Shown here: positions 36,925-64,000 of the stretch, piece by piece | Numbering within the stretch: position 1 is the first letter of the stretch | Layout of the letters: each line of letters opens with the position of its first letter | IMG/VR virus record: IMGVR_UViG_3300035520_001286 | Coordinates: 4,532 to 68,531 of that record | Length of the DNA stretch: 64,000 nucleotides | Source: a virus | Taxonomy: Duplodnaviria; Caudoviricetes | Strand: one strand, 5' to 3' | The notes under the pieces: generated by a model | Databases searched by the model: none | What the model saw: only the letters and a program-made list of their open reading frames with translations | Told to the model about the DNA's origin: nothing | Made by a program: the position numbers and the translations under genes

Positions 36925-38199
36925 TTATTCTTTGTCATACCTAAAATCTTTGAATACAGGAAATCTTAGTGAGTATTCGCCATTCTGATTTTGTGTTTCT
37001 TCAAAATATTGTACTTCGATCATTTGTCCAATATACTTTTGTTTATTATTCCAAATTTCATTTCTTAACTCATCAGTTAGCCCCGCACCAACTCTTACTT
37101 CATTTCCTTTATATTTTATGATTAATGAACCTAAAGTATTTTTATATTTATTATTTCCTTCTTCTAATCCAATGATCTTTGTATCAATATCTTGCATTCT
37201 CTTTACTTTTAATAAATCTTTAGTTCTACCAAAGCAATATGGAGCACTTAAAGTTTTTACCATTACACCTTCTTCACCATTTGCTATTTGTTCATCTAAA
37301 CATTTAATTATTTGAGTTTGATCATGGCCTTGATATAATTTTTTTAAAACCTCAATGTGTTTAAATTTCCCACCAAAAATATCTTCTAATTTTCTTCTCC
37401 TAAACACATAGCCAGCTTCGCATTTTTTATTTATAAAATTACTATATGGCATTAAGTCAAAAACAAGAATTTTTAATCCTTTTTTCTCGCCATCTTTACG
37501 AGCAATTTTCATAGTTTTTTGGTATTGTTCTTTACTACTTAAATTTCCCTTATCAAATAATGTAAGTTCACCATCTAAAACAAATTCTTTTAATTGGCTT
37601 TCCATTAACTCTTTTTCTATTTCAACTAATCCAAATAATTCTTGACCTGATCTATTAAAAAATTGAATTTTATTATTATGTTTTATAGTTATTAATCTTT
37701 GACCATCAATTTTTGTGTCTATTATAAAACTTTTATTTTTTATGTAATCAGGAAACTCAAAATATTTTTCTGCTAATTGTACTTCAAATATAGGAATTAT
37801 ATTATTAAAAATTTTATTTATTGTTTTTGTTTGTATACCTAAAATTAAATTTTTAGTAATTATTTTCCTTATTAACTCAGAATAAATTTTATTTTTTTCT
37901 ATATAATTTTGAACCAATAAAATATCTTGATCTTTACCTGTATTATTTTCTTTTAAATACTCACAAAGTTCTATTATATTATTAATTTTAAGTTTATTAT
38001 TTAAATTTACTTTTATTTTCTTATTTAGTTTTTTATCAGATATTCCTGTAATTACTAAATTATTAAAAATAAAACCTAATAAATATTTTATCTCTTTATC
38101 TTGTTTATATTTTTCTAATATTCTTTGTTTATATAATCTAGAATTATTTTTATTTATTTCTGTAGTAAATATATTATATAACTCAAGTATTTTATCCAT
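36925..38199 (-). CDS. lig: ATP-dependent DNA ligase
   Basis: Motif I TKIDGQR, VLDGEL, EGVMVK, LLKVK, VRVGAG, LRFPVF. Confidence 0.92.
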   Translation of the reverse strand: MDKILELYNIFTTEINKNNSRLYKQRILEKYKQDKEIKYLLGFIFNNLVITGISDKKLNKKIKVNLNNKLKINNIIELCEYLKENNTGKDQDILLVQNYIEKNKIYSELIRKIITKNLILGIQTKTINKIFNNIIPIFEVQLAEKYFEFPDYIKNKSFIIDTKIDGQRLITIKHNNKIQFFNRSGQELFGLVEIEKELMESQLKEFVLDGELTLFDKGNLSSKEQYQKTMKIARKDGEKKGLKILVFDLMPYSNFINKKCEAGYVFRRRKLEDIFGGKFKHIEVLKKLYQGHDQTQIIKCLDEQIANGEEGVMVKTLSAPYCFGRTKDLLKVKRMQDIDTKIIGLEEGNNKYKNTLGSLIIKYKGNEVRVGAGLTDELRNEIWNNKQKYIGQMIEVQYFEETQNQNGEYSLRFPVFKDFRYDKE

Positions 38200-42912: not shown

Positions 42913-43434
42913 TTAATTATTCTCCTTAAATATCATAAATTTTTGTTTTATACTATTTAATCTACTATAAATAGTTTTTTCTGACCTATCAAGCATTTTT
43001 GCTATTTCAACTATTTTATACCTTTGTTGTTTTTTGTCTAATATGAATTTTTCCTCCTCTGTTAGTGTGTTAAAAAAATCTTTGTAATCTATATTAAACT
43101 CAACTAAATTTATTTCAGTTAATGTTTTATTTGTATATTGGCAATTATCATCATATTCTTCACTATTAATTTTTTCTATTTTATTACCTTTCCTTTTTGG
43201 TTTTATAACTGAGTTATAATTTATATACTGTAATATGCTATTTTTTATATAATTATAAGCATATGTACTAAATTTACCTTTATTTTTATTATATCTTAAT
43301 GCTGCTTTACATAAAGCTAAATATCCTTCTTGTAATATATCTTCATAATCATGAGTTATATGTAATTTATTTATTACGTAATTAACTAATTTGATATTAC
43401 TGTTTATTAAGTTTATTTGTTCTAAATTAAGCAT
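42913..43434 (-). CDS. sigma-70 family RNA polymerase sigma factor
   Basis: Region 2 NIKLVNYVI..EDILQEGYLALCKAALRYNKNKGKFSTYAY; region 4 EIAKMLDRSEKTIYSRL. Confidence 0.85.
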   Translation of the reverse strand: MLNLEQINLINSNIKLVNYVINKLHITHDYEDILQEGYLALCKAALRYNKNKGKFSTYAYNYIKNSILQYINYNSVIKPKRKGNKIEKINSEEYDDNCQYTNKTLTEINLVEFNIDYKDFFNTLTEEEKFILDKKQQRYKIVEIAKMLDRSEKTIYSRLNSIKQKFMIFKENN

Positions 43435-43882: not shown

Positions 43883-44431
43883 TTAATCATGGAGTCCACT
43901 ATAGATTTTTTGTTTAATTACTTTTAGCATTTTGCTTATATTGCACTGTGAATAATGGACCTCATTTGCTATTTCTTGTTGTGTATAACCTTTTTGAGCC
44001 AATTCAATAATTTGCATATATACTTTTGGTTCATTTGTTAGAATTTGCTCAATATAGATTTTAGATTCTATTGTGAGTAAATTGCAATCTTCTTCGCCAT
44101 AAACATTAAGCATGTCTAAGTCTTTATCATCATCATTTTGAATAGCAAAACCAATCTCTTTGCCTTTTCCATGAATGATTTTATATACATACTTAAGCAT
44201 ACTAAAATAAATTTGTCTTACTGCAAATGTGCAAAACTTAATATTTTTCGATTGATCATACTTTAAGCAAGATTTCCATAATGCTATATAACCTTCTTGC
44301 ATAATGTCATCTTTATTTTTGAGTACGTCATTTGATTTTGTAATTGAGGTATTAAATACATATGGAACTAATTTTATGTTCTTTTCATATAATTCATTTG
44401 CCTCAACCATTTTTGTTTGTTTGTTTTCCAT
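43883..44431 (-). CDS. sigma-70 family RNA polymerase sigma factor (second)
   Basis: NIKLVPYVF..DDIMQEGYIALWKSCLKYD..KFCTFA; region 4 GYTQQEIANEVHYSQCNISK. Confidence 0.85.
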   Translation of the reverse strand: MENKQTKMVEANELYEKNIKLVPYVFNTSITKSNDVLKNKDDIMQEGYIALWKSCLKYDQSKNIKFCTFAVRQIYFSMLKYVYKIIHGKGKEIGFAIQNDDDKDLDMLNVYGEEDCNLLTIESKIYIEQILTNEPKVYMQIIELAQKGYTQQEIANEVHYSQCNISKMLKVIKQKIYSGLHD

Positions 44432-50569: not shown

Positions 50570-51091
50570 TTAATGTTCTTCCTTTAAGATTCCTTTTTTT
50601 AACCATTTTTTTCCTTCTAACAAATAAATTGCTTGACATATAGCATCAGTTTCATCATCATTTTTTCCAATATCCTCACCAAACCTTTGATGCACATATC
50701 TGACAGAAACGCCCTTGTCCGCATTGTGTATACCATGAGAATTGCCACAAACGTGGGATTTCCAACTTCTTGTGTCATAACTATATACCTTTTGTGGCCA
50801 AACAGAATCTACTATTGTTGCAATCAAAGTAGAATGGGCTACTATTGTTGCCATAGAAATATTTCCTTGTGAAAATAATCTAACTCTTTCTACACCTATT
50901 ACATTAGGATGAAATTTCTCAATAATGTGTTTTACCAACCTTGAGACAAATGCACGTTTTTCAGTTTTACTTTTTAAACCTTTATAGTTATAACTTCTAA
51001 CTAGCAATATTTTTGCATTATCTATAGAATCTCCTTCTACAACAGCAACTCCTATATTAGTAAAACTTTGATCTATCCCCAATGCTATCAT
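50570..51091 (-). CDS. RuvC-like Holliday junction resolvase
   Basis: ALGIDQSFTNIG, IGVERV, WKSHV.G, DDETDAI. Confidence 0.8.
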   Translation of the reverse strand: MIALGIDQSFTNIGVAVVEGDSIDNAKILLVRSYNYKGLKSKTEKRAFVSRLVKHIIEKFHPNVIGVERVRLFSQGNISMATIVAHSTLIATIVDSVWPQKVYSYDTRSWKSHVCGNSHGIHNADKGVSVRYVHQRFGEDIGKNDDETDAICQAIYLLEGKKWLKKGILKEEH

Positions 51092-51909
51092 TTAATACCT
51101 TCTATTTTATAATACATAACTTCAATGTTTTTTGTTTTTTTACCATTACCTGGCTTGATTTTTGTCATTTCACGTAATTCAACATAAGGTAAATTAACAT
51201 TATTATCTAATATATCAGTATATAATATATCACAACCATTATTTAATAATTTTCTATAATTATTTTCTCCAATAGATTGTGTGCCATTATACCAAATATC
51301 AGTTTTTTCATATGGAGGATCTAAAAACATTAAACAATCTTTTGGTTTAACATTTTGTATATTTAATTTTTTAAAGAAATCTTTGTAATCTAAATTATAA
51401 ATTTCTATATTTTTAAAACTATTATGAATTTTATTATATTGTTCTTTTGTCAAAATTCTATCGTTTATTCTATTACCATAACTTGAATTAAATCCATTTA
51501 GACCACATCTAAACATAGAATTTATACAAGCATAAGAAATATAATATAAATAAAAACTTTCATAAAAAGTTCCGCTACCATAATATTTTTTATTCATATA
51601 ATTTCTAAAATTATAATAAGCATTTTTATCCTTTAATAACATTAATGAGCTACTATAATCATCAACAAATTTTTTATATTGCCAATAATCATAAATTTTA
51701 AACCCATTCAATATTTTAATTAAATCTTTATTTGCATCGTTTATGTAAACTTTATCAAACATATTGCCAAAATTTACTGAAATAGAAGCTGAGCCACAAA
51801 ATGGCTCAACTAATATTTTCTTTTTAGTTTTAGAAATATATTGTTCTACTATGGGTAAATATTTATATTTGCAGCCAACATACTTAATTATTCTTATATA
51901 ATTACTCAT
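51088..51909 (-). CDS. Dam-like (D12 class) N6-adenine DNA methyltransferase
   Basis: KYVGCK, VEPFCGSASI, FLDPPY. Confidence 0.85.
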   Translation of the reverse strand: MSNYIRIIKYVGCKYKYLPIVEQYISKTKKKILVEPFCGSASISVNFGNMFDKVYINDANKDLIKILNGFKIYDYWQYKKFVDDYSSSLMLLKDKNAYYNFRNYMNKKYYGSGTFYESFYLYYISYACINSMFRCGLNGFNSSYGNRINDRILTKEQYNKIHNSFKNIEIYNLDYKDFFKKLNIQNVKPKDCLMFLDPPYEKTDIWYNGTQSIGENNYRKLLNNGCDILYTDILDNNVNLPYVELREMTKIKPGNGKKTKNIEVMYYKIEGIK

Positions 51910-52648
51910 TGTTTTTACTTATTGCTTCACTTATTCTTTGTTTTGCAATATCATAATACTTCTTTTCTAATTCAAAACCTATGAATTTTCTTTTAGTATT
52001 AATACAAGCAACTCCAGTAGATCCACTGCCCATACAATTATCTAAAACTAAATCATTTTCATTTGTATAAGTTTTAATTAAATATTCTAATAATTCTACT
52101 GGTTTTTGTGTTGGATGCTTTCTGCCAATATTTGGATTAGAAAATTCTAATAAATTGTCTGGATAATGTAAACCATCAAGCGAACCATTAAATTTTATAT
52201 GCTTAATATTCCATTTACCTTGAGAATTTTTATATTCTGCTTTTCTTTGTGAAGCTCCCCATACTTTACCTTTATACATTTGAGGATTATATGTTGGTTT
52301 CTTTTTATAAAATATACTAATAGTTTCTATACGAAAATATGGTTGATATTTTAAATTTAAAAAATTACTACCTAATGATTTATGCCAATAATAATCATAC
52401 TTATACCATGAGGTATTGCTTAATCTTAAATGACAAGCAAATAATCTATCACCAAATAAAGCTATACAACCATTATCTTTTATTATTCTTTTATACTGCT
52501 CCCATAATTTATCAAAAGGAATAATTATATCCCATTTACATGCAGTAGTTCCATAAGGTAAATCACAGAGTATCATATCAATAGACTTATCTGGAATTTC
52601 TTTCATTAATTCTAAGCAATCGCCACATTTTATATAATTCGTTTTCAT
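51902..52648 (-). CDS. N4-C/N6-A DNA methyltransferase (beta class)
   Basis: DMILCDLPYG, HPTQKPVELL, VLDNCMGSGSTG, FIGFEL. Confidence 0.9.
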   Translation of the reverse strand: MKTNYIKCGDCLELMKEIPDKSIDMILCDLPYGTTACKWDIIIPFDKLWEQYKRIIKDNGCIALFGDRLFACHLRLSNTSWYKYDYYWHKSLGSNFLNLKYQPYFRIETISIFYKKKPTYNPQMYKGKVWGASQRKAEYKNSQGKWNIKHIKFNGSLDGLHYPDNLLEFSNPNIGRKHPTQKPVELLEYLIKTYTNENDLVLDNCMGSGSTGVACINTKRKFIGFELEKKYYDIAKQRISEAISKNNE

Positions 52649-54550: not shown

Positions 54551-57301
54551 TCAAATAAAATTTTTATTTACTAAACTTCTATTATACAATAAATTTCTTC
54601 TATACCAAAGTTTGTCGTTAAATTCCAAACACCCTTGTTCTTTTAATATTGAAATTACTTTTGAAGTTATTGCTCTACTATTTCCACTTTCCTTTATTTT
54701 ATCTTCAAAATCAGGAAAATCAATGTATGGACTATTTTCAAAAATTATTTGAGCAGCTTTTTCTCCTATTCCTTTAATTGAACTTAACCCACATTGAATT
54801 ACTTTACCACCACCATATTCTACAATCTTAAAATTTGCAGGCCCATTTACATGAGGTAACATTATTACACAACCAGATTTAACAGCCTCTGACTTATATT
54901 TCTCTATTTTTAAATCATCATATGTAACTTTAAGTTTATTTTCCCAAAACTCTAATGGATAATTTAATTTGAAAAACATTTCTTCTATTGAAATTAATGA
55001 ATATCCAACGGCATGTCCTTTATTAAATGAATAGTTGAAAAAATTGTTATATAAATTTTCGGCTTCAACCAAATTTACTCCATTATTTTTTGCACCATTT
55101 AAAAATATCTTTTTATATTTTTCAAAATCTTGGACGAATTGTGAATGCGTTCCACCTTTTGCAGTTCCATTAGGATCCATTTTAATAATCTTGTCTGCCT
55201 GTCCCCAATCCATATTACCAATATTTACACATAATTGCATAATCTGTTCCTGATATATTACAGTTCCATAACTATCCTTTGTATATTGATAATAACATTC
55301 ATTTTTAGCATTATTTATATTTTGTTTATTTTGTGCATAAATTTTATGCATTTTTAAACTTAATGGCCCAGGTCTATTCATAGCGTTGGTAGCAACAATA
55401 TCACCAAAACTATCACAATCAATATCATTTAACATATTCTTTGCAGCTGATTTTTCAAACTGGAAAATTCCATCAGTATTACCATTTTTAAACGCTTTTA
55501 ATATGTTCTCATCTTCAGTCCATTGTTCATTTTTTCCAATTCCTTCTATGTGCGTTAATCTTCTCAATTGACCAAGTTCTTCCATCGTACTAAGACCAAG
55601 AATATCAAATTTAATAATATGAATTTTCTCTAAATCAGCCAAATCATATGAAGAATAAAGCTTTCCAGTTTTTTTATCTTCTTTAATTGCAGTATAATCT
55701 AATAAATCTCCACCTGTAATAGCAACCCCAGCAGCATGCGTTCCTATAAAACGTACTTTTTGATATAGCAATGTAAAATGTTTAATAATATTATTATATA
55801 AACCATTATATAACATATATTTTTTATCTTTTTTCAATCCGATTAAATCTAATTCATTTTCAGTAACATATTGATTTATATAAGATTTTATATTTGCAAT
55901 TTCAATTTTATTATTTTTTCTAATGTCCTCATCAACTTTCACATCAGTTGGCAAACCACAAACTTTCGTAAGATCATTTATTAGGTTATCGACTTTATAC
56001 AGCCCATAGCTACAAATTTGACATGCTTTACCTTTATACTTAGTTGTCAAATATTCCATAACCTCTTCACGTCTTGCTGTTTCGAAATCTATATCAATAT
56101 CAGGCATTTTCACTTTATCTTTTCTTAAAAAACGCCTAAAATCTAATCCAAATTTAATACTATCAACATCAGTAATTCCTAACGCATAATTAACTAAAGA
56201 ATTACAACCAGAACCTCTTCCAGGTCCAACAGTTATCCCATTTGATTTTGCCCAATTAACATAATCTTGAACCATTAGAAAATAATCTTCAAAATGCAAT
56301 GTTTTAATTACGTCTAATTCTTCTTTTGCTCTATTAATATATTCCTTTGTATATTTCCCTCTTTTCTTTAATCCATTTTTTACATATTCGACTAAATACT
56401 CAAATGAACTTTTTTCTTTACCTTCAGAAAAATCGGGAAGTGAAGTCGTTAATTGATCTAAGATATCATTATCAACCTTATCTTCAATTTCCTTCAAATT
56501 GTTGATCATCCATGTACCTAACCTCTCAATATTGGAAAAATCATTTTTATGCATTTTAATGAATCTTTGTTTCATTTCATTATCGCTTGGCATATATCTT
56601 TCAGAATATGTATTTCTAATCATATTAATATCATGCCCAGAAATTTCATGCATTTTCAAATAAGTATCAAAATCTTCTTTTTTTCCATAATGCGAATCAG
56701 AAGTCAGGATACATTTAATGTGTAATTTTTTTGCAAGTTTAATTGATTCAATATTAACTTTTTCTTGCATTCCAACTTCTGATACAGTATATGGCTGAAC
56801 TTCAATATAAAAATCATCACCAAATAATCCAACCATCTTAACTAAATATTTTTCTGCAATGTCAAGTCTATCATTTAAAATACTTTTGGCTAAAAAACTT
56901 GCAACACAAGCACTTGTACAAATTAGTCCTTCACGATAATTTTCTAATTCTTTAAATGTTACAATAGGCTTATAATATGTTTGAGTTGAAGCTATTGTGC
57001 ATATTTGATTTAAATTATGATAGCCTTGTTTATTTTTAGCAAATAAACACAAATGATAATATGGTTTATCATTATCTACTTTTGGTTTAAAATAAATTTC
57101 ACACCCCATAACTGGCTTTATTCCGGCTTCTTTACAAGCATAATAATGCTTAACTAAGCCATTCACGACACCATGTTCTGACATCCCTAATGCAGTATGT
57201 CCTAACTCTTTAGCTATTTGAACCAAACGTTCTTGATTATCTGAACCATCAAACGCAGACCACATACTATGTCTATGTAAATCCATATTTTTAATATCCA
57301 A
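54551..57301 (-). CDS. dnaE: DNA polymerase III alpha subunit (DnaE, PHP domain)
   Basis: DLHRHS, GPGRGSG, MPDIDIDF, HAAGV, KFDILGL, YSFNKGHA; TTG start. Confidence 0.93.
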   Translation of the reverse strand: MDIKNMDLHRHSMWSAFDGSDNQERLVQIAKELGHTALGMSEHGVVNGLVKHYYACKEAGIKPVMGCEIYFKPKVDNDKPYYHLCLFAKNKQGYHNLNQICTIASTQTYYKPIVTFKELENYREGLICTSACVASFLAKSILNDRLDIAEKYLVKMVGLFGDDFYIEVQPYTVSEVGMQEKVNIESIKLAKKLHIKCILTSDSHYGKKEDFDTYLKMHEISGHDINMIRNTYSERYMPSDNEMKQRFIKMHKNDFSNIERLGTWMINNLKEIEDKVDNDILDQLTTSLPDFSEGKEKSSFEYLVEYVKNGLKKRGKYTKEYINRAKEELDVIKTLHFEDYFLMVQDYVNWAKSNGITVGPGRGSGCNSLVNYALGITDVDSIKFGLDFRRFLRKDKVKMPDIDIDFETARREEVMEYLTTKYKGKACQICSYGLYKVDNLINDLTKVCGLPTDVKVDEDIRKNNKIEIANIKSYINQYVTENELDLIGLKKDKKYMLYNGLYNNIIKHFTLLYQKVRFIGTHAAGVAITGGDLLDYTAIKEDKKTGKLYSSYDLADLEKIHIIKFDILGLSTMEELGQLRRLTHIEGIGKNEQWTEDENILKAFKNGNTDGIFQFEKSAAKNMLNDIDCDSFGDIVATNAMNRPGPLSLKMHKIYAQNKQNINNAKNECYYQYTKDSYGTVIYQEQIMQLCVNIGNMDWGQADKIIKMDPNGTAKGGTHSQFVQDFEKYKKIFLNGAKNNGVNLVEAENLYNNFFNYSFNKGHAVGYSLISIEEMFFKLNYPLEFWENKLKVTYDDLKIEKYKSEAVKSGCVIMLPHVNGPANFKIVEYGGGKVIQCGLSSIKGIGEKAAQIIFENSPYIDFPDFEDKIKESGNSRAITSKVISILKEQGCLEFNDKLWYRRNLLYNRSLVNKNFI

Positions 57302-57442
57302 CCCTTTTTATTATACTAAAACTACATTTAATTATATAATACTATTTAACTAAATTTCATTTAAATAATTTTTCCATTCTTCCAGCTAAAAATATTCCAA
57401 CCATTTTATATTTATCTCCTATTTACTATTTTAATAACTATT

Positions 57443-57607
57443 TTAATTTATTTCTCCATCTATTCTACAATAATCATAATTTATAAACATGGTAATCAAT
57501 AAAATAGATTCTTCAAAATTTTTAATATCATCATTTTGTAATGAATTAATAGCACTTCGAAGTAAATCCATTATTGTTTCTTTATCAATTTCATCAAATT
57601 TATTCAT
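57443..57607 (-). CDS. 54-aa hypothetical protein (not in ORF track)
   Basis: MNKFDEIDKETIMDLLRSAINSLQNDDIKNFEESILLITMFINYDYCRIDGEIN; AAGG RBS. Confidence 0.55.
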   Translation of the reverse strand: MNKFDEIDKETIMDLLRSAINSLQNDDIKNFEESILLITMFINYDYCRIDGEIN

Positions 57608-57628
57608 AACCTTACAATATCATATAAT

Positions 57629-57717
57629 GTCATAAAATGAATTCTGTGACATTTTATTAGTGATATAAGTATTTATATATTTAATATAATTAAATGTCAC
57701 AGAATTAAAATTTTATA
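57629..57717. promoter_or_regulatory. paired inverted box, copy J
   Basis: GTCATAAAATGAATTCTGTGACA - 43 bp - TGTCACAGAATTAAAA; 12-bp perfect inverted match. Confidence 0.8.
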
Positions 57718-57735
57718 TACTAGAAAGTATATTAA

Positions 57736-58239
57736 TCATTTTGTTCCAGTAGAACCAAAACCATTGCCCGATCTTTTTGTATTTTTTTCTATTTTATCAA
57801 CAACTTCTAAACTACCCATCCAAACTTCACGCATTACAAGTTGAGCAACTTTATCACCTTTATCAAAATGAACCATATCATCAGAATTATTAAAAAAATG
57901 TATATGACAATTTCCGGTGTAATCACTATCAATTAATTCTGCACCTTTATCCAATTTCTTTTTTGTTGAGATTCCTGATTTATTATACACAGACAAGTCC
58001 CATCCAAATGGAATATCAAATGCTAAATCTAATGGAATTAGAACATCTTTTCTTGGTTCTATATCTATATCAATTGGTGTATAAACATCTAAACCTGACG
58101 ATCCACAAGTTCCTCTTGTTGGAACTTTAGCATTCTCACTTAATAATTTTACTTTTAATTTTGGATATCTTTTAATTTTAAACATTTTCTTCACCAGCGA
58201 ATTGCTTAATAATTTTATAATAATTCGAAGTATTTCCAC
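57736..58239 (-). CDS. dut: trimeric dUTPase
   Basis: PTRG...SSGLDVY, NKSGIS, LIDSDYTG, GDKVAQLV, RSGNGFGSTG; true start is probably downstream of the ORF-track start. Confidence 0.85.
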   Translation of the reverse strand: MEILRIIIKLLSNSLVKKMFKIKRYPKLKVKLLSENAKVPTRGTCGSSGLDVYTPIDIDIEPRKDVLIPLDLAFDIPFGWDLSVYNKSGISTKKKLDKGAELIDSDYTGNCHIHFFNNSDDMVHFDKGDKVAQLVMREVWMGSLEVVDKIEKNTKRSGNGFGSTGTK

Positions 58240-58495
58240 AAATCCTTTTCATAAAAGCCATAGCAATTCCTTTCTCTTTATCAAATTTATCTTTCTTATT
58301 ACATTTTACAATTGTCTTGATCCCATCATCCCAAAAAACAATTGTAGCGGGTTTATTAAAAATAACTTTTTTAATTTTTACATTGAAATTTTTTGGAAAA
58401 CAATAAATACTACTTATTCCATTAATCAAACAATTTGTGTTACAAGGATTATTATAATTTCCATGTTCAATAAGCCATTCGTTAAATTCATCCAT
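58178..58495 (-). CDS. conserved phage hypothetical protein
   Basis: KKVIFNKPATIVFWDDG.KT.VKC...FDKEKGIAMA. Confidence 0.7.
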   Translation of the reverse strand: MDEFNEWLIEHGNYNNPCNTNCLINGISSIYCFPKNFNVKIKKVIFNKPATIVFWDDGIKTIVKCNKKDKFDKEKGIAMAFMKRICGNTSNYYKIIKQFAGEENV

Positions 58496-58522
58496 TCTTT
58501 TTACTCCTTATTTGTATTATGC

Positions 58523-60274
58523 TTAAATACATTTTTCTATCACCAAAGCCCCAAACTTATCATTAACAAACATAAGTACATCAAGATCCGCCTTAATAAA
58601 AGAATTAATTGCAGCAATTTCCTCTCTTATGATTGGCTGCTCATGAAGATTAAAGCTCGTATTAACTAAACATTTTTTGCCAGTATCATTCTCATATTGT
58701 TTTAATACGGACCAAATAAAATTATCATCTTTTTTATTTATAATTTGAGGTCTTGCTGTACCATCAACATGCGAAACTGCTTTATAAGTATTGACAAATT
58801 CTTCTGTTCCATCAAATGTCATCGTCATAAACTTTGCAGATTCTTCTCCCCCGTTTAAATTTTTAAATAAATCTTTCGCAACTTCTTGTCTACAAACAGG
58901 GGCAAAAGGCATAAACTCAGATCTTGAAAGTCTTGCATTCAATGAATCATTTGTTTCCTTTTTCGTAGCATCATACAATATTGTTCTATGGCAAAGTGCT
59001 CTTGGACCAAATTCCATTCTTCCATGCATTAAACAAATGATTTTATTATTTTCTAGTGCTTTAATGATATTATCAATAACAATATCATTATCAACAATAC
59101 TTATATTATATTTTAATTTTAAGCCTTTTTCATCAATGATATTAGAAACATTATTTATTATTTTATCAAAACAATTTATATCAGAACCAAGCATTGCCAT
59201 ATTTGTAGAATTTTCATTATTTACATTATAATCATTATTTTTAATCATCTCATAAATAACAGAGCCAATGCATGTTCCTTCATCACCCATAGGAGGACAA
59301 ACATATACATTATTAAATAAACCAGAATCTTTAATTCTTTGATTTATTTTTACATTAGCAAATAATCCACCTGCCAAGTAAACATCTCTTTTATCTTTGC
59401 AATATCTTTTCAACCAAGAAAGCGTATACTTTTCTGCAAATTCCTGGACAGAAGCAGAAATATCTTCTCTTGTTGCTCCATTTGACTTTAAATTATTTAC
59501 TAAGCTATAAACAGATTCCCTTAATAATAAAAATTTATCAAAATAAGTAATAGTTGAATTTTTTACTTTGTCTTGCTCTTCTTCGTTCAATTCTCTGACA
59601 ATTTTAAATGATAATCCATTTCCATAATCACATTGATCGAATAAGGATTCAAAATCATTTAAATAAATACTTTTGCCATAAGCAGCCAAACCAGTAATCT
59701 TGCCTTCATGCTGGTGTTCTTTAAACCCTAAAGCGCCAGTCGTAAATTGATAAACTAATGCAATACTGTTTTCTAATAAAACTTCAGAAATTCTATTATT
59801 AAAGAATGAATCGGTTATCGTTGCGCTTAAACCATCCCCAAAGCCATCAGAAGTTACTAGATAATACTTATCATTGAATTGCTTAGAAGAATAAAATCCA
59901 AACGTAGAATATGCATGAGAAGTTTGATGATCAACCCTTATAATTTTATTGTCGCATATACATATATCATGTAATTTCAAAAATTTCAATATAATTTCTT
60001 GCCAAGTATTGCAACCATTAATATATGTAAGATCACAATGAGATTTAAAATAGTTAATTGTAATTCCCTCATAATGTGAAATTACAATTTTATCAATTTT
60101 ATTAATTTTAGCCAATTTAATACATTCTAAGATAGCATCAAATGGAATGTCTTTCGTATTTTTTTTCCCATTCATACGCTCCTGTGATACAGCAGAAATG
60201 ACACCATTATTAGTTGAAACTATGCATGCAGAAGAGTTAAAACCCAGTGAAATTCCAAGATAAAATTTTTCCAT
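58523..60274 (-). CDS. carbamoyltransferase, NodU/CmcH/TobZ family
   Basis: GISLGFNSSAC, HQTSHA, DGFGDG, EGKITGLAAYG, AGGLFANV, MGDEG, EFGPRAL, FMPFAP, HVDGTARPQ, NTSFNLH. Confidence 0.92.
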   Translation of the reverse strand: MEKFYLGISLGFNSSACIVSTNNGVISAVSQERMNGKKNTKDIPFDAILECIKLAKINKIDKIVISHYEGITINYFKSHCDLTYINGCNTWQEIILKFLKLHDICICDNKIIRVDHQTSHAYSTFGFYSSKQFNDKYYLVTSDGFGDGLSATITDSFFNNRISEVLLENSIALVYQFTTGALGFKEHQHEGKITGLAAYGKSIYLNDFESLFDQCDYGNGLSFKIVRELNEEEQDKVKNSTITYFDKFLLLRESVYSLVNNLKSNGATREDISASVQEFAEKYTLSWLKRYCKDKRDVYLAGGLFANVKINQRIKDSGLFNNVYVCPPMGDEGTCIGSVIYEMIKNNDYNVNNENSTNMAMLGSDINCFDKIINNVSNIIDEKGLKLKYNISIVDNDIVIDNIIKALENNKIICLMHGRMEFGPRALCHRTILYDATKKETNDSLNARLSRSEFMPFAPVCRQEVAKDLFKNLNGGEESAKFMTMTFDGTEEFVNTYKAVSHVDGTARPQIINKKDDNFIWSVLKQYENDTGKKCLVNTSFNLHEQPIIREEIAAINSFIKADLDVLMFVNDKFGALVIEKCI

Positions 60275-60275
60275 C

Positions 60276-61076
60276 TTATTCCTCTTTAAATAATTTATTT
60301 TCTTTGAAATACCTTACTATATCATCTTTTGGATTATCTGATTTTAAAACTAAATCTTCAACTTTATTTCTATTTTCGTAAATTTTTTCTATATCAAGAG
60401 AAATTTTACTATTTTTAGAAATATTTTTAACTCTATCTATAAGATTAAAATTTCTATCATATGCATGCATACTAACAACAAAATGAGTATATGCACCATA
60501 TTCAAAATTTAATCTATGAGCAATAAATTTTTGAAGTTCTGTAAAAAATGCTACATCATAAGGAAGCCCTAACCATATATCATTTGACCGCATCATACCA
60601 GTACAATTCAATTTATTATTTCTAATATAAAATTGTAAAGCAATTGTGCAAATTTCATCTTTTGTATCAATTACATTTATGTTAGGAACATTAAAATTAA
60701 TAACTGCTCTTCTTGAATTTTTATCTTTCTTTAATAGCTCAATCATCTTTTCAACTTGATCAAAACCATGACGTTTAAAAATGATATCACCATATGCAGA
60801 ATTGCAATTGACCCCATCATCAGAAATTCTAACCCAAAAATTAGAAAACTTATGAATAAAATCAATATCTTTCCTTGCACATAAATACCAAATTAACTCA
60901 CCAAATAAATATGATTTCGAAATATCCCTAATATTGATGATATTATTATTGATATCTGTTAATGTAAATTTTACATTCATTAATTCTTTAGTATTATTTT
61001 CAACCATGCCTTCATTTATTATCTTTGAACATATAACTCTATAAATATCATCTATATTATTATTAGTAATTTCCAT
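60276..61076 (-). CDS. thymidylate synthase homologue, dCMP hydroxymethylase type
   Basis: Catalytic ICT, RSNDIWLGLPYD (Asp where ThyA has the Asn of PFN), SMHAY. Confidence 0.8.
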   Translation of the reverse strand: MEITNNNIDDIYRVICSKIINEGMVENNTKELMNVKFTLTDINNNIINIRDISKSYLFGELIWYLCARKDIDFIHKFSNFWVRISDDGVNCNSAYGDIIFKRHGFDQVEKMIELLKKDKNSRRAVINFNVPNINVIDTKDEICTIALQFYIRNNKLNCTGMMRSNDIWLGLPYDVAFFTELQKFIAHRLNFEYGAYTHFVVSMHAYDRNFNLIDRVKNISKNSKISLDIEKIYENRNKVEDLVLKSDNPKDDIVRYFKENKLFKEE

Positions 61077-61551
61077 GTTCTACCTTTTCTTTTATTTTTT
61101 CTACAATTTCTTGAATTGACTTATTTGTTGTATCAATTTTAATTATATCATTGTTAGAACAGATTTCCTCATATTCAAGCTCAATTTTTTTAATATTTGA
61201 TAGGATATTCTGCATTTCATCTTTTCGTTCATTTAATCTTCTAATAATTTCATTAACTTCGCATGTTAGTATTATTATTTTAAATCCAGCAATTTCAGCT
61301 GTTTTTAATAAATAATTAAAATCAAAAAGATTAATTTCACTTTCACGATCTAAAATTTTAGAATACACAAATTCACTTATAAAACTCCTATCAAATACTA
61401 TATCATTTAATTGAAGTCGTTCACGATATATATTTAATTTTTTAGGACCATGATATGTTGAATAAAAAATGTCAAGATTATATTCTTCAGCAAGCTTTTT
61501 TATAATTGACGTTTTACCAACTCCATCACAACCCTCAATAATTAAACGCAT
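61063..61551 (-). CDS. dNMP (thymidylate-like) kinase
   Basis: IIEGCDGVGKTS P-loop, VFDRSFISEFVY. Confidence 0.85.
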   Translation of the reverse strand: MRLIIEGCDGVGKTSIIKKLAEEYNLDIFYSTYHGPKKLNIYRERLQLNDIVFDRSFISEFVYSKILDRESEINLFDFNYLLKTAEIAGFKIIILTCEVNEIIRRLNERKDEMQNILSNIKKIELEYEEICSNNDIIKIDTTNKSIQEIVEKIKEKVEHGNY

Positions 61552-61552
61552 A

Positions 61553-62254
61553 TTATTTCCTTAATAAATTAATATAGTAATCTTTTGATTTTTTAGGTTC
61601 AGCAGAAATACCTTTTTCCTTGCAAATCTTATAAAGATCAATCGGTTTCATATCTTCATAACCATCATCTTCATCATCCCAAGGAGCTTCATCATCAGAA
61701 TCTTCATCGTCATCGTCTTCTGCATCATCACAAGGAAATGCTTCATAAATTTTCTTAAGAACTTCACTCTTTGTATAAGGTGTCGCATTTTCACCTGTTA
61801 CCTTAAAAGGTGCTTTATCATTTGGAACTACCTGATATGTCGTATCAGTTCCTTCACCAAGCCTTTGAATAATATAATCACGATCTGTGATAGTACCATA
61901 TGCCTCTTGCATTGCAATCAACATGGGAATCGGAGAAGCCTTATTTGCTTTATACATAAATAATTCTCTTTGCTTTGTTTCATAATTATAAATTGTCCAA
62001 ATATAATTTTCAGCGCTTCTTGCTTCTTTATTATCGCAATTCGGGCATTTCTTCCCATAATATTTTAAGCAAGGGTGATTAAATTCACCAAACTTATCGT
62101 GGAACAATACAGCAATGCCATCATCCATATCATTCAAAAATCTTACCCTACATTTTCCATCTTTCTTAAGATAAAATGTTGCTCTCTTACTACTACCAGC
62201 TCTAGAAATGCTTTCCTTCATCATTTCAATTAAGCTCTTACCTTTTTCTGCCAT
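61553..62254 (-). CDS. T4 gp32-like single-stranded DNA-binding protein
   Basis: RVRFL, H...C......CPNC zinc motif, DRDYIIQR.GEGTDTTY, acidic C-terminal linker. Confidence 0.7.
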   Translation of the reverse strand: MAEKGKSLIEMMKESISRAGSSKRATFYLKKDGKCRVRFLNDMDDGIAVLFHDKFGEFNHPCLKYYGKKCPNCDNKEARSAENYIWTIYNYETKQRELFMYKANKASPIPMLIAMQEAYGTITDRDYIIQRLGEGTDTTYQVVPNDKAPFKVTGENATPYTKSEVLKKIYEAFPCDDAEDDDDEDSDDEAPWDDEDDGYEDMKPIDLYKICKEKGISAEPKKSKDYYINLLRK

Positions 62255-62316
62255 AAAATTTACTCCTTATTTTTTTATTTTTTAATTTATTTTTATTATA
62301 CTTTATGAATTTTAAT

Positions 62317-63237
62317 TTATTCTTTTTTATTTTTAATTTTTATCAAGTCCATTGTATCAGCCCATGATTTCCTAAAATTATATATATCTAATTCACCTGG
62401 ATCTTTTACATTTTCTGGAAATTGAAAACGAACAACTTCAAAATAATTTTTTAAGTATTCAAACCCTTTATCCCCAGTTTCTGTATTATCTAATGCACAT
62501 ATAATTTTATTTGTATATGTTTTTAATTTAATAATTTGCTCTTTGGTTATTTTCCAACCTAAAATAGCACAACAATTCTTTACACCAAACTGCACCAATT
62601 TAAGCCAATCCATATAACCTTCCACTACAACTACCCAATTTTTAAAGTAGTTTCCGACAAGAGTATCTCTTCGATTGAATCCTTTATTATATAAATACTT
62701 TCTTTCTTTTTCAACTTCTTTATTAGTTGCCCTACATACATAACCTTTGAATTCACCGTTATCTAACATAGGCAATATTATTCCATAATCATTGCTAGCA
62801 TTAATTCTTGCATCAACTTTCGTTAATGTTTTACTATTAAAACCACGAGAATGCATATAAGAATTTTTTATACACTTCCATTCAGGTTGCGACAAACTAT
62901 AAAAGTATAACTTTGCTTCTTCTAAGTATTCCTCATTCGTTTTTACTTCACTATATGTTACTTGAATGTTCTTCTTTTTTCCACCATTTAAGATTTTATT
63001 TAAAATTACTAATGATCTTAAATCATTACAATTTTCCATATGCTTAATAAAATCTTTTGCATTGCCTTTTGCATTACAACCATAACAATAATATTTTCCT
63101 CTATTTAGATCTATTTGCATAGAAGCATTTAAATCAGAATGAAAGGGACATACAATTTTAAATTTATCATTTACACTATATTTGTCAACTAAATTATAAT
63201 GCAATACTACTTTAAGTAATTCTTCTCCATCATTCAT
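62317..63237 (-). CDS. dnaG: DNA primase (CHC2 zinc finger + TOPRIM)
   Basis: CPFHSD...YYCYGC, VVVEGYMD, ALDN..TG, DPGEL. Confidence 0.88.
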   Translation of the reverse strand: MNDGEELLKVVLHYNLVDKYSVNDKFKIVCPFHSDLNASMQIDLNRGKYYCYGCNAKGNAKDFIKHMENCNDLRSLVILNKILNGGKKKNIQVTYSEVKTNEEYLEEAKLYFYSLSQPEWKCIKNSYMHSRGFNSKTLTKVDARINASNDYGIILPMLDNGEFKGYVCRATNKEVEKERKYLYNKGFNRRDTLVGNYFKNWVVVVEGYMDWLKLVQFGVKNCCAILGWKITKEQIIKLKTYTNKIICALDNTETGDKGFEYLKNYFEVVRFQFPENVKDPGELDIYNFRKSWADTMDLIKIKNKKE

Positions 63238-63724
63238 TGTTCTTCTTCTTTCTTGAAATTTTTACATATTTCGAAACTTTAACATTATAGCAACCTTTCA
63301 GATCATCTTCAGAAATAATTCCTTTGCTAAAAGCATATTCTAATTTATTAGAATTAATTGTTTTATTTACTGAAATTGCTGGTTTTAATAAATCTTTTAA
63401 TCCTTTATTTTGCTTTATGATTTCAATAAATTTTTCTTGATCTTCAATTATAAAAGACTTCTCAATAATCGTATCTAACTTCTCTTTTGGAAGCGTAACA
63501 AAAATTTTATCAAAGTCAAATTCAATTTTTTTATTTTCTACTAATCTTGCAGATAAATTTTTCTCTTGTCCATCATCAACAATAAATTCATTGTCTAATT
63601 CAAAATCAAACTGACTAATCAATTCATCTTTGATCTTATCATTTTGATTTTTTAACTCTGAGATCTGTTTATCATTCTTTTCGTACTGAATAATCTTTTG
63701 TTCAAATTCTTTGTTAGCCTTCAT
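63230..63724 (-). CDS. hypothetical protein, 164 aa
   Basis: ORF track; AGGAG RBS. Confidence 0.65.
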   Translation of the reverse strand: MKANKEFEQKIIQYEKNDKQISELKNQNDKIKDELISQFDFELDNEFIVDDGQEKNLSARLVENKKIEFDFDKIFVTLPKEKLDTIIEKSFIIEDQEKFIEIIKQNKGLKDLLKPAISVNKTINSNKLEYAFSKGIISEDDLKGCYNVKVSKYVKISRKKKNNE

Positions 63725-63780
63725 TGTATTCTCCTATATGCTTTTATTTTACTGATTTCTCAGTTTTTTCTAAAATAAAA

Positions 63781-63830
63781 TAAGTTGTAAGCTAATAATG
63801 TTTCTGCACTACACTTTTGCTTACAACTTA
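63781..63830 (-). terminator. hairpin plus U-tract in the leader of the primase operon (terminator/attenuator candidate)
   Basis: TAAGTTGTAAGC / GCTTACAACTTA 12-bp inverted repeat, followed by TTTTATTTT on the minus strand. Confidence 0.5.
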
Positions 63831-64000
63831 TTTCTATATTAAGTATATGTGTGATACCCTAATATATAACAAAATTAAGTTTTAACAATATAAAGTGCAG
63901 TTTTATATTATATATATATTATTATACTCTTAAATTACTATATTATTCCTCAATTTTATGTAATTGATAATATGCCGAAGCAATATTTTCAAAAACGCAA

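Follow-up and report, generated by a model that had tools for sequence, protein, structure and literature searches.

A predicted cytosine-hypermodification cluster with a TobZ-type carbamoyltransferase in an uncultured phage

The stretch of DNA analysed in this study (the window, 64,000 nucleotides (nt)) comprises bases 4532-68531 of the IMG/VR virus record IMGVR_UViG_3300035520_001286, a 68,531-bp record with direct terminal repeats. It contains a cluster of adjoining genes for a nucleoside-monophosphate kinase, a thymidylate synthase (TS) homologue and a two-domain carbamoyltransferase, for which a role in the hypermodification of cytosine is proposed. The record represents an uncultured phage whose host group is probably gut Clostridia; its guanine-plus-cytosine content is ~27%, and almost every gene of the window lies on the minus strand. 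An initial annotation of the window had reported a kinase, a TS homologue with RSND...PYD, a full carbamoyltransferase and a dUTPase near a DnaE polymerase, and each of these genes was recovered on the minus strand. The features of the region are listed below, the three enzymes of main interest first.

61063-61551, minus strand: thymidylate-kinase-like P-loop nucleoside-monophosphate kinase, 162 amino acids (Pfam Thymidylate_kin; PHROG)
60276-61076, minus strand: TS-fold protein, predicted deoxycytidine monophosphate (dCMP) hydroxymethylase, i.e. 5-hydroxymethyl-dCMP (5hm-dCMP) synthase, 266 amino acids (PF00303)
58523-60274, minus strand: NodU/CmcH/TobZ-type O-carbamoyltransferase, 583 amino acids, proposed target 5-hydroxymethylcytosine (5hmC) (Carbam_trans_N plus Carbam_trans_C)
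58178-58495, minus strand: gene of 105 amino acids with no assigned family, AAGGAG ribosome-binding site before its ATG
57736-58185, minus strand: canonical trimeric dUTPase, 149 amino acids from the ATG at 58185 (PF00692)
57640-57706, no strand: inverted repeat of 20 nt with a 27-nt spacer, repeat arm AATTCTGTGACATTTTATTA and its complement
61553-62254, minus strand: single-stranded DNA-binding (SSB)-like protein, upstream context (PHROG single-strand DNA binding protein families, E 5.6e-9; E, expectation value)
63237-62317, minus strand: DnaG-type primase
54551-57301, minus strand: DnaE-type replicative polymerase, downstream context (PHP, DNA_pol3_alpha, finger and HHH_6 domains)
54542-53484, minus strand: RecA

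In the direction of transcription the order is DnaG-type primase, SSB-like protein, kinase, TS homologue, carbamoyltransferase, 105-residue gene, dUTPase, inverted repeat, DnaE and RecA. From the SSB-like gene through the dUTPase, neighbouring genes are either separated by 1-27 nt or share 14 or 8 nt. One nucleotide lies between the stop codon of the SSB-like gene and the start of the kinase, whose gene shares 14 nt with the TS gene, and the carbamoyltransferase starts 1 nt past the TS stop. DnaE begins after a 430-nt spacer downstream of the dUTPase.

Active sites of the TS homologue and the carbamoyltransferase

The TS homologue matched PF00303 with an E of 3.9e-28 and 98.8 bits (cut-off 24.3) and contains MMRSNDIWLGLPYDV, as had been described. 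Its best solved relative is the cytidine monophosphate (CMP) hydroxymethylase MilA (E 8.9e-26); true thymidylate synthases were matched at E 6e-16 or weaker, and T4 gp42 at 3.8e-12. When T4 gp42 (taken from NC_000866) was aligned with the window protein, residues E60, Y95, R122, C143-T144, R163-S164, D166, D174, H204 and Y206 were identical in both. C143, D140, D166 and D174 of the window protein correspond to C146, L143, D169 and N177 of ThyA, respectively. D174 is aligned with an Asp of MilA, with the Asn of Staphylococcus aureus ThyA and with D179 of T4 gp42, and the Asp previously claimed for the position of ThyA Asn177 and T4 Asp179 is thus present. The distance from the catalytic Cys to this Asp is 31 residues in both proteins (C143 to D174 in the window, C148 to D179 in T4).

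Several ThyA-numbered residues have been described as diagnostic. N177D marks dCMP as the substrate, and L143D/E marks a hydroxymethyl, not a methyl, product (Lee et al., NAR 2026, PMC13326640); Asp at N177 serves as the criterion of cytosine specificity in both PMC8670742 and PMC13326640. D169N is the mark of the new flavin-dependent 5-hydroxy-dCMP synthases (PMC13326640), and position 147 ranked second among the residues that discriminate modified contigs (Yang et al., PMC8670742). The window homologue has an acidic residue at the L143 position (D140, three residues ahead of the catalytic Cys) and Thr, not His, after that Cys. The Asn at D169 of the RB69 gp48 and DLP3 gp80 type was not found in the window TS, which has D166 within RSND instead, and because D169 is kept the protein is not of the 5-hydroxy-dCMP synthase type. 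Judged from the alignment, the residue pattern is that of a hydroxymethylase and neither that of a methylase nor of the 5-hydroxy type, and the predicted activity of the TS homologue is very probably that of a dCMP hydroxymethylase.

The carbamoyltransferase is of full length, with Carbam_trans_N (E 1.4e-28) and Carbam_trans_C (E 1.1e-49) both above their cut-offs, and it aligns end to end with GdmN (E 4e-44), NovN and TobZ. With these enzymes it shares the two-domain architecture, a His-His-Asp-Asp metal site and, in the adenylating domain, the FGPRAL motif. Residues H116, H120, D143 and D331 do not vary among 34 homologues and are kept in 77 of 80 aligned carbamoyltransferases (79 loci, described below, plus the window), the three exceptions being one identical pair shifted in the alignment and one fragment without the region; they are taken to be the metal ligands of the family.

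TobZ, GdmN and NovN differ from the window enzyme in their W/G/R signature and their small-molecule hydroxyl substrates, and the viral enzymes with W/G/R have no TS neighbour. The signature refers to positions W408, G421 and R423 of TobZ, which separate modified from unmodified contigs (Yang et al., eLife 2021, PMC8670742). The window enzyme has L415, C428 and R430 at these positions, i.e. two of the three are changed; the TobZ numbering was transferred by means of the alignment to GdmN and the 13+2 spacing of the motif residues. Yang et al. also showed that a phage carbamoyltransferase from a TS-linked contig, printed with I, C and T at TobZ 408, 421 and 423, converted 5hmC to 5-carbamoyloxymethylcytosine with carbamoyl phosphate and ATP, and single-stranded DNA, 5-hydroxymethyl-deoxycytidine triphosphate (5hmdCTP) and RNA served as substrates (PMC8670742); the initial annotation had stated this conversion correctly. 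In public metagenomes, more than 100 protein clusters were 49-62% identical to the window carbamoyltransferase, on contigs of up to ~53 kb.

Related loci and cultured relatives

A search of viral contigs with the single carbamoyltransferase sequence returned no related loci. When the aligned sequences of 34 homologues were used to scan IMG/VR, a related carbamoyltransferase was detected at 79 loci, and a TS homologue was located on the same strand within 8 kb in 57 of them. Each of these 57 TS proteins has Asp at the N177 as well as at the L143 position. A TS neighbour accompanied 53 of the 56 carbamoyltransferases with Cys at TobZ 421 and two of the 19 with Gly there, and none of the nine with the canonical W/G/R signature. 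In 14 of the 22 TS-free loci the carbamoyltransferase has a W/G/R or L/G/R signature. In five of the remaining eight the sequence ends, on one side, no more than ~1 kb from the carbamoyltransferase gene, and in L013 within 2.6 kb; L056 and L065 are not truncated in this way.

In a maximum-likelihood tree, the TS-linked carbamoyltransferases formed two clades, A (47 rows) and B (17 rows), with 100% and 99% support in the Shimodaira-Hasegawa-like approximate likelihood ratio test (SH-aLRT), respectively. Every locus that has the short motifs of the assayed enzyme falls in clade A, to which that enzyme is assigned on the basis of these motifs. The window enzyme is inside clade B, where 13 of 17 rows have an Asp-type TS nearby; of the four that do not, three come from loci truncated within ~2.6 kb of the carbamoyltransferase gene.

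A second TS homologue (247-277 amino acids) was observed in 13 clade-A loci (L025, L027, L030-L032, L034, L036, L037, L039, L050, L061, L071 and L075), ~620-690 nt downstream of the carbamoyltransferase and 1.5-4 kb from the hydroxymethylase-type TS. It has Asp at N177 and L143 and Asn at D169 in the HMM (hidden Markov model) alignment, which is the published signature of 5-hydroxy-dCMP synthases (PMC13326640). In L023 and L026 an Asn-type TS with the same signature was the sole TS found. The window has no Asn-type second TS gene.

The kinase scored 35.4 bits against Thymidylate_kin (cut-off 27) and matched the PHROG thymidylate kinase family at E 1.9e-19. No chain named as the T4 deoxynucleoside monophosphate (dNMP) kinase was among its PDB matches at E <=1; a structure of that enzyme, gp1, is presumably present in PDB. 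In four loci, the TS homologue and the kinase are fused in one frame of 494-510 amino acids with the TS N-terminal and the kinase C-terminal (L008:9908-11422, L009:9765-11279, L010:9912-11396 and L017:9775-11307), and the gene order there is primase, SSB, carbamoyltransferase, TS-kinase, DnaE and RecA. The SSB-like gene is syntenic in L008-L017. Because the kinase is translationally coupled to the TS homologue in the window and fused to it in sister phages, it is considered the kinase of the pathway, and a role as 5hm-dCMP kinase is proposed.

The nearest cultured TS homologues, at 44-57% identity, are those of Enterococcus phages VPE25, VFW and their relatives and of Lactobacillus phage ATCCB. 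The VPE25/VFW protein is of the Asp type and 48.5% identical over 204 residues, and VPE25 has a comparable order of P-loop kinase, Asp-type TS, trimeric dUTPase and hydroxyl-directed transferase; unlike in the window, the transferase of VPE25 and VFW is a T4-like beta-glucosyltransferase and the phage backbone is unrelated. The cytosines of VPE25 DNA resist bisulfite conversion, i.e. they are modified (Duerkop et al., mBio 2016, PMC4999554), and together with the gene set this suggests that this TS family feeds transferases acting on the hydroxyl group. By DnaE, the nearest cultured phages are two groups of isolates from gut Clostridia hosts, Agathobaculum phage AB434P2 (53% identity) and Clostridium phages CS266P1-4 (48%). 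In AB434P2 the slot directly before DnaE is likewise occupied by an Asp-type TS, but there is no carbamoyltransferase, a cytidylyltransferase-like gene and a weak MazG-like gene being found instead; the region examined in CS266P1, in contrast to the window, contained no TS homologue. The TS core shared with VPE25 and AB434P2 and the differing transferases suggest that the hydroxymethylase core is common and that the hydroxyl-decorating enzyme is exchangeable. The slot of AB434P2 (L083:416-5582) was also found to encode a choline-kinase-like protein and two proteins with sub-threshold glycosyltransferase-like matches (E ~0.1), and it is a candidate for a different hydroxymethylcytosine decoration in a cultured gut phage.

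Proposed pathway and alternatives

We propose, with a probability of about 0.65, that the cluster encodes a pre-replicative cytosine-replacement pathway plus a group-transfer step, with 5-carbamoyloxymethyl-deoxycytidine (5-carbamoyloxymethyl-dC) as the final base. Whereas the gene identities, the active-site residues, the linkage of the genes and the fusions in relatives were observed directly, the catalytic activities, the stage of carbamoylation and the extent of cytosine replacement are inferred. The TS homologue would convert dCMP and methylene-tetrahydrofolate to 5hm-dCMP, with Asp174 giving the specificity and Asp140 permitting the attack of water. The coupled thymidylate-kinase-like enzyme would phosphorylate 5hm-dCMP to the diphosphate, a host nucleoside-diphosphate kinase would produce the triphosphate, and the phage DnaE would put the modified triphosphate into DNA. 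The carbamoyltransferase would use host carbamoyl phosphate and ATP to form carbamoyl-adenylate in its YrdC-like C-terminal domain, and the metal-containing Kae1-like N-terminal domain would move the carbamoyl group onto the 5-CH2OH to give 5-carbamoyloxymethyl-dC, the substrate being either the free nucleotide or single-stranded DNA. The dUTPase would only keep uracil out of DNA. An anti-restriction and anti-CRISPR (clustered regularly interspaced short palindromic repeats) role of the modification may be expected by analogy.

The cluster resembles the route of Yang et al. 2021 (PMC8670742) in having, in a phage setting, a two-domain NodU/TobZ-type carbamoyltransferase beside an Asp-type TS, with a non-His residue at TS H147 and, at the positions mapped to TobZ 408 and 421, a residue other than Trp and a Cys, respectively; it differs from that route in the separate clade of its carbamoyltransferase, in the Arg at TobZ 423 and in a record without the MazG/PRA-PH and dCMP-deaminase partners. 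As in T4, a TS-fold hydroxymethylase would be followed by a kinase and by a transferase acting on the 5-CH2OH, and the active-site residues match (E60, C143/C148, RSND, D174/D179). Unlike in T4, however, the TS is only 25% identical to gp42, the kinase resembles thymidylate kinases and no similarity to gp1 was detected in it, a gp56-type dCTPase is missing, a carbamoyltransferase stands in place of the beta-glucosyltransferase, and the polymerase is of the DnaE type in place of family B.

Several observations weigh against the proposed pathway. The clade-B enzyme of the window is only ~27% identical (25-30%) to clade A, the branch joining the two clades has 6% support in the best tree, and the window keeps Arg at TobZ 423, where clade A has Thr; the carbamoylation activity of clade B is a prediction from sequence. 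On these comparisons a common lineage with the assayed enzyme is not demonstrated for the window carbamoyltransferase. The two have in common the genomic signature and, as mapped, the Cys at TobZ 421. In addition, no MazG, PRA-PH, dimeric dUTPase (gp56-like) or dCMP deaminase was found in the 68.5-kb record at E <=0.1 (families PF03819, PF01503, PF08761 and PF00383), and the complete relatives G001 and G002 are without MazG and PRA-PH. The MazG/PRA-PH and dCMP deaminase families co-occur with the pathway (Yang et al., PMC8670742). Because genes for a dCTPase and a deaminase are absent from the record, the T4-style exclusion of dCTP is missing, and full replacement of cytosine is therefore not assured in this phage. 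A dCMP deaminase gene (PF00383, E 3.3e-16) was observed in L006 (9641-10075), directly after a clade-B carbamoyltransferase. The cytosine-hypermodification reading of the initial annotation is supported, each step of its argument having been confirmed, among them the linkage to an Asp-type TS in 57 of 57 TS-bearing loci. It is qualified by the position of the carbamoyltransferase outside the assayed clade, by a kinase unlike T4 gp1, by the accessory place of the dUTPase and by the missing dCTPase and deaminase.

Of the alternatives, the one that survives best, although we regard it as unlikely, is that the DNA contains only 5-hydroxymethyl-dC and that the carbamoyltransferase targets a glycan, a small molecule or a protein, as is assumed for the Nol-like cyanophage carbamoyltransferases, or that it acts on 5hmC and the carbamate is an intermediate to another base. 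It is favoured by the separation of clade B from the clade of the assayed enzyme and the canonical Arg kept at TobZ 423, and by the existence of TS-free phage carbamoyltransferases (the 14 loci above, together with cyanophage and pelagiphage matches). Those TS-free enzymes, however, are of the W/G/R or L/G/R type and lack the Cys at 421 of the window enzyme, and the single nucleotide between the TS and carbamoyltransferase genes and the Asp-type TS in 13 of 17 clade-B rows argue against this alternative. The gene without assigned function directly after the carbamoyltransferase could also point to a non-5hmC target, but it is not conserved in relatives.

It is improbable that the TS homologue makes another C5 product, such as 5-methyl-dCMP (as in XP12), 5-hydroxy-dCMP (as in RB69 and DLP3) or 5-hydroxymethyl-CMP (as by MilA), in which case the final base would be no hydroxymethylcytosine derivative. 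Product specificity has brought surprises before, 5-hydroxy-dCMP synthases having been recognised only in 2026 (PMC13326640), and the closest solved structure, MilA, is an enzyme of CMP and not of dCMP. A methylase is opposed by the acidic residue at the L143 position and a 5-hydroxy-dCMP synthase by the Asp at D169. A ribonucleotide substrate is opposed by RSND and SRR, which the window shares with T4 gp42 and where MilA has RAND and SKR; Zhao et al. are said to have reported in 2016 that those residues set the ribose preference. The location of the TS gene within a DNA-replication module near the dUTPase and DnaE also speaks against this alternative. The remaining alternative, an ordinary dUMP (deoxyuridine monophosphate)-specific thymidylate synthase or dUMP hydroxymethylase in a nucleotide-salvage cluster, agrees with GenBank, where the nearest homologues in phages are labelled 'thymidylate synthase' or 'deoxyuridylate hydroxymethyltransferase', and is very improbable, given the Asp instead of Asn at N177, the Thr instead of His after the Cys, the Asp instead of Leu at L143, and the modified cytosines of VPE25 with its close TS homologue.

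The route to 5-carbamoyloxymethyl-dC is itself ordinary, having been known since 2021; for the clade-B branch, to which the window carbamoyltransferase belongs, the activity is a predicted one. Particular to this phage are the clade-B enzyme, the minimal gene set without dCTPase and deaminase, the support that fusions give to the role of the kinase, and the Clostridia-phage lineage. The pathway would be extended to a group of low-GC phages with relatives among those of gut Clostridia, and to a large clade of putative 5hmC carbamoyltransferases. Several complete genomes have no known dCTPase. Many restriction enzymes would fail to cut such DNA, which may be misread or too rarely represented in sequencing libraries, and the carbamoyltransferase could be a second source of 5hmC-labelling reagents. 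A more speculative and rather doubtful possibility is that, with clade B, phages of gut Clostridia recruited the NodU/TobZ fold independently for acting on modified cytosine, in a minimal system of Asp-type TS, kinase and carbamoyltransferase without dCTPase and deaminase. If this were true, dCTP would be excluded in another way, substitution would be partial, or carbamoylation would occur at the nucleotide level to a product other than 5-carbamoyloxymethyl-dC, and the interval from the SSB-like gene to DnaE would serve, in this lineage of phages, as an exchangeable site for enzymes that decorate hydroxymethylcytosine.

Accessory and flanking genes

The open frame of the dUTPase (57736-58239) matched PF00692 at E 1.7e-25, and translation likely begins at the ATG at 58185, where start codon and stop codon of the preceding gene overlap. 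The protein matched plant (Arabidopsis), human and yeast dUTPases over the full length (E 2e-24), with the motifs aligned, including the C-terminal GFGSTG. In L002-L007 and VPE25 the gene is a neighbour of the Asp-type TS. It was absent from the whole genomes G001 and G004 (100% complete) and G003 (87% complete), which all encode the carbamoyltransferase together with the fused TS-kinase protein, and it is a dispensable accessory outside the core of the pathway. The trimeric dUTPase was also considered as the missing dCTPase, and this was rejected as the principal explanation, the protein being a canonical dUTPase without which G001, G004 and G003 exist.

The 105-residue gene between the carbamoyltransferase and the dUTPase was missed in the initial annotation. 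It had no Pfam or PHROG match, its relatives are small phage hypothetical proteins only (e.g. in Faecalibacterium phage FP_oengus), and it was not found in the related loci. The inverted repeat at 57640-57706 lies directly past the dUTPase stop and ahead of a 54-residue open reading frame and DnaE, and it is the 3' boundary of the cassette, between gene units. No terminator-like sites were found in 57200-64000, and a sigma-70 promoter scan gave a score not above that of shuffled sequence.

Downstream of RecA are an N6_N4_Mtase gene (51902-52648, minus strand, E 2.8e-31) and, adjoining it, a gene for a D12/Dam-class adenine methyltransferase (51088-51909, minus strand, E 3.5e-21), and adenine or N4 methylation is probably stacked on cytosine modification in this phage. 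An ATP-dependent DNA ligase is encoded at 36925-38199 of the window; ligases have been associated with modified contigs (Yang et al. 2021, PMC8670742). Two sigma-70-region-2 proteins are encoded at 42913-43434 and 43883-44431.

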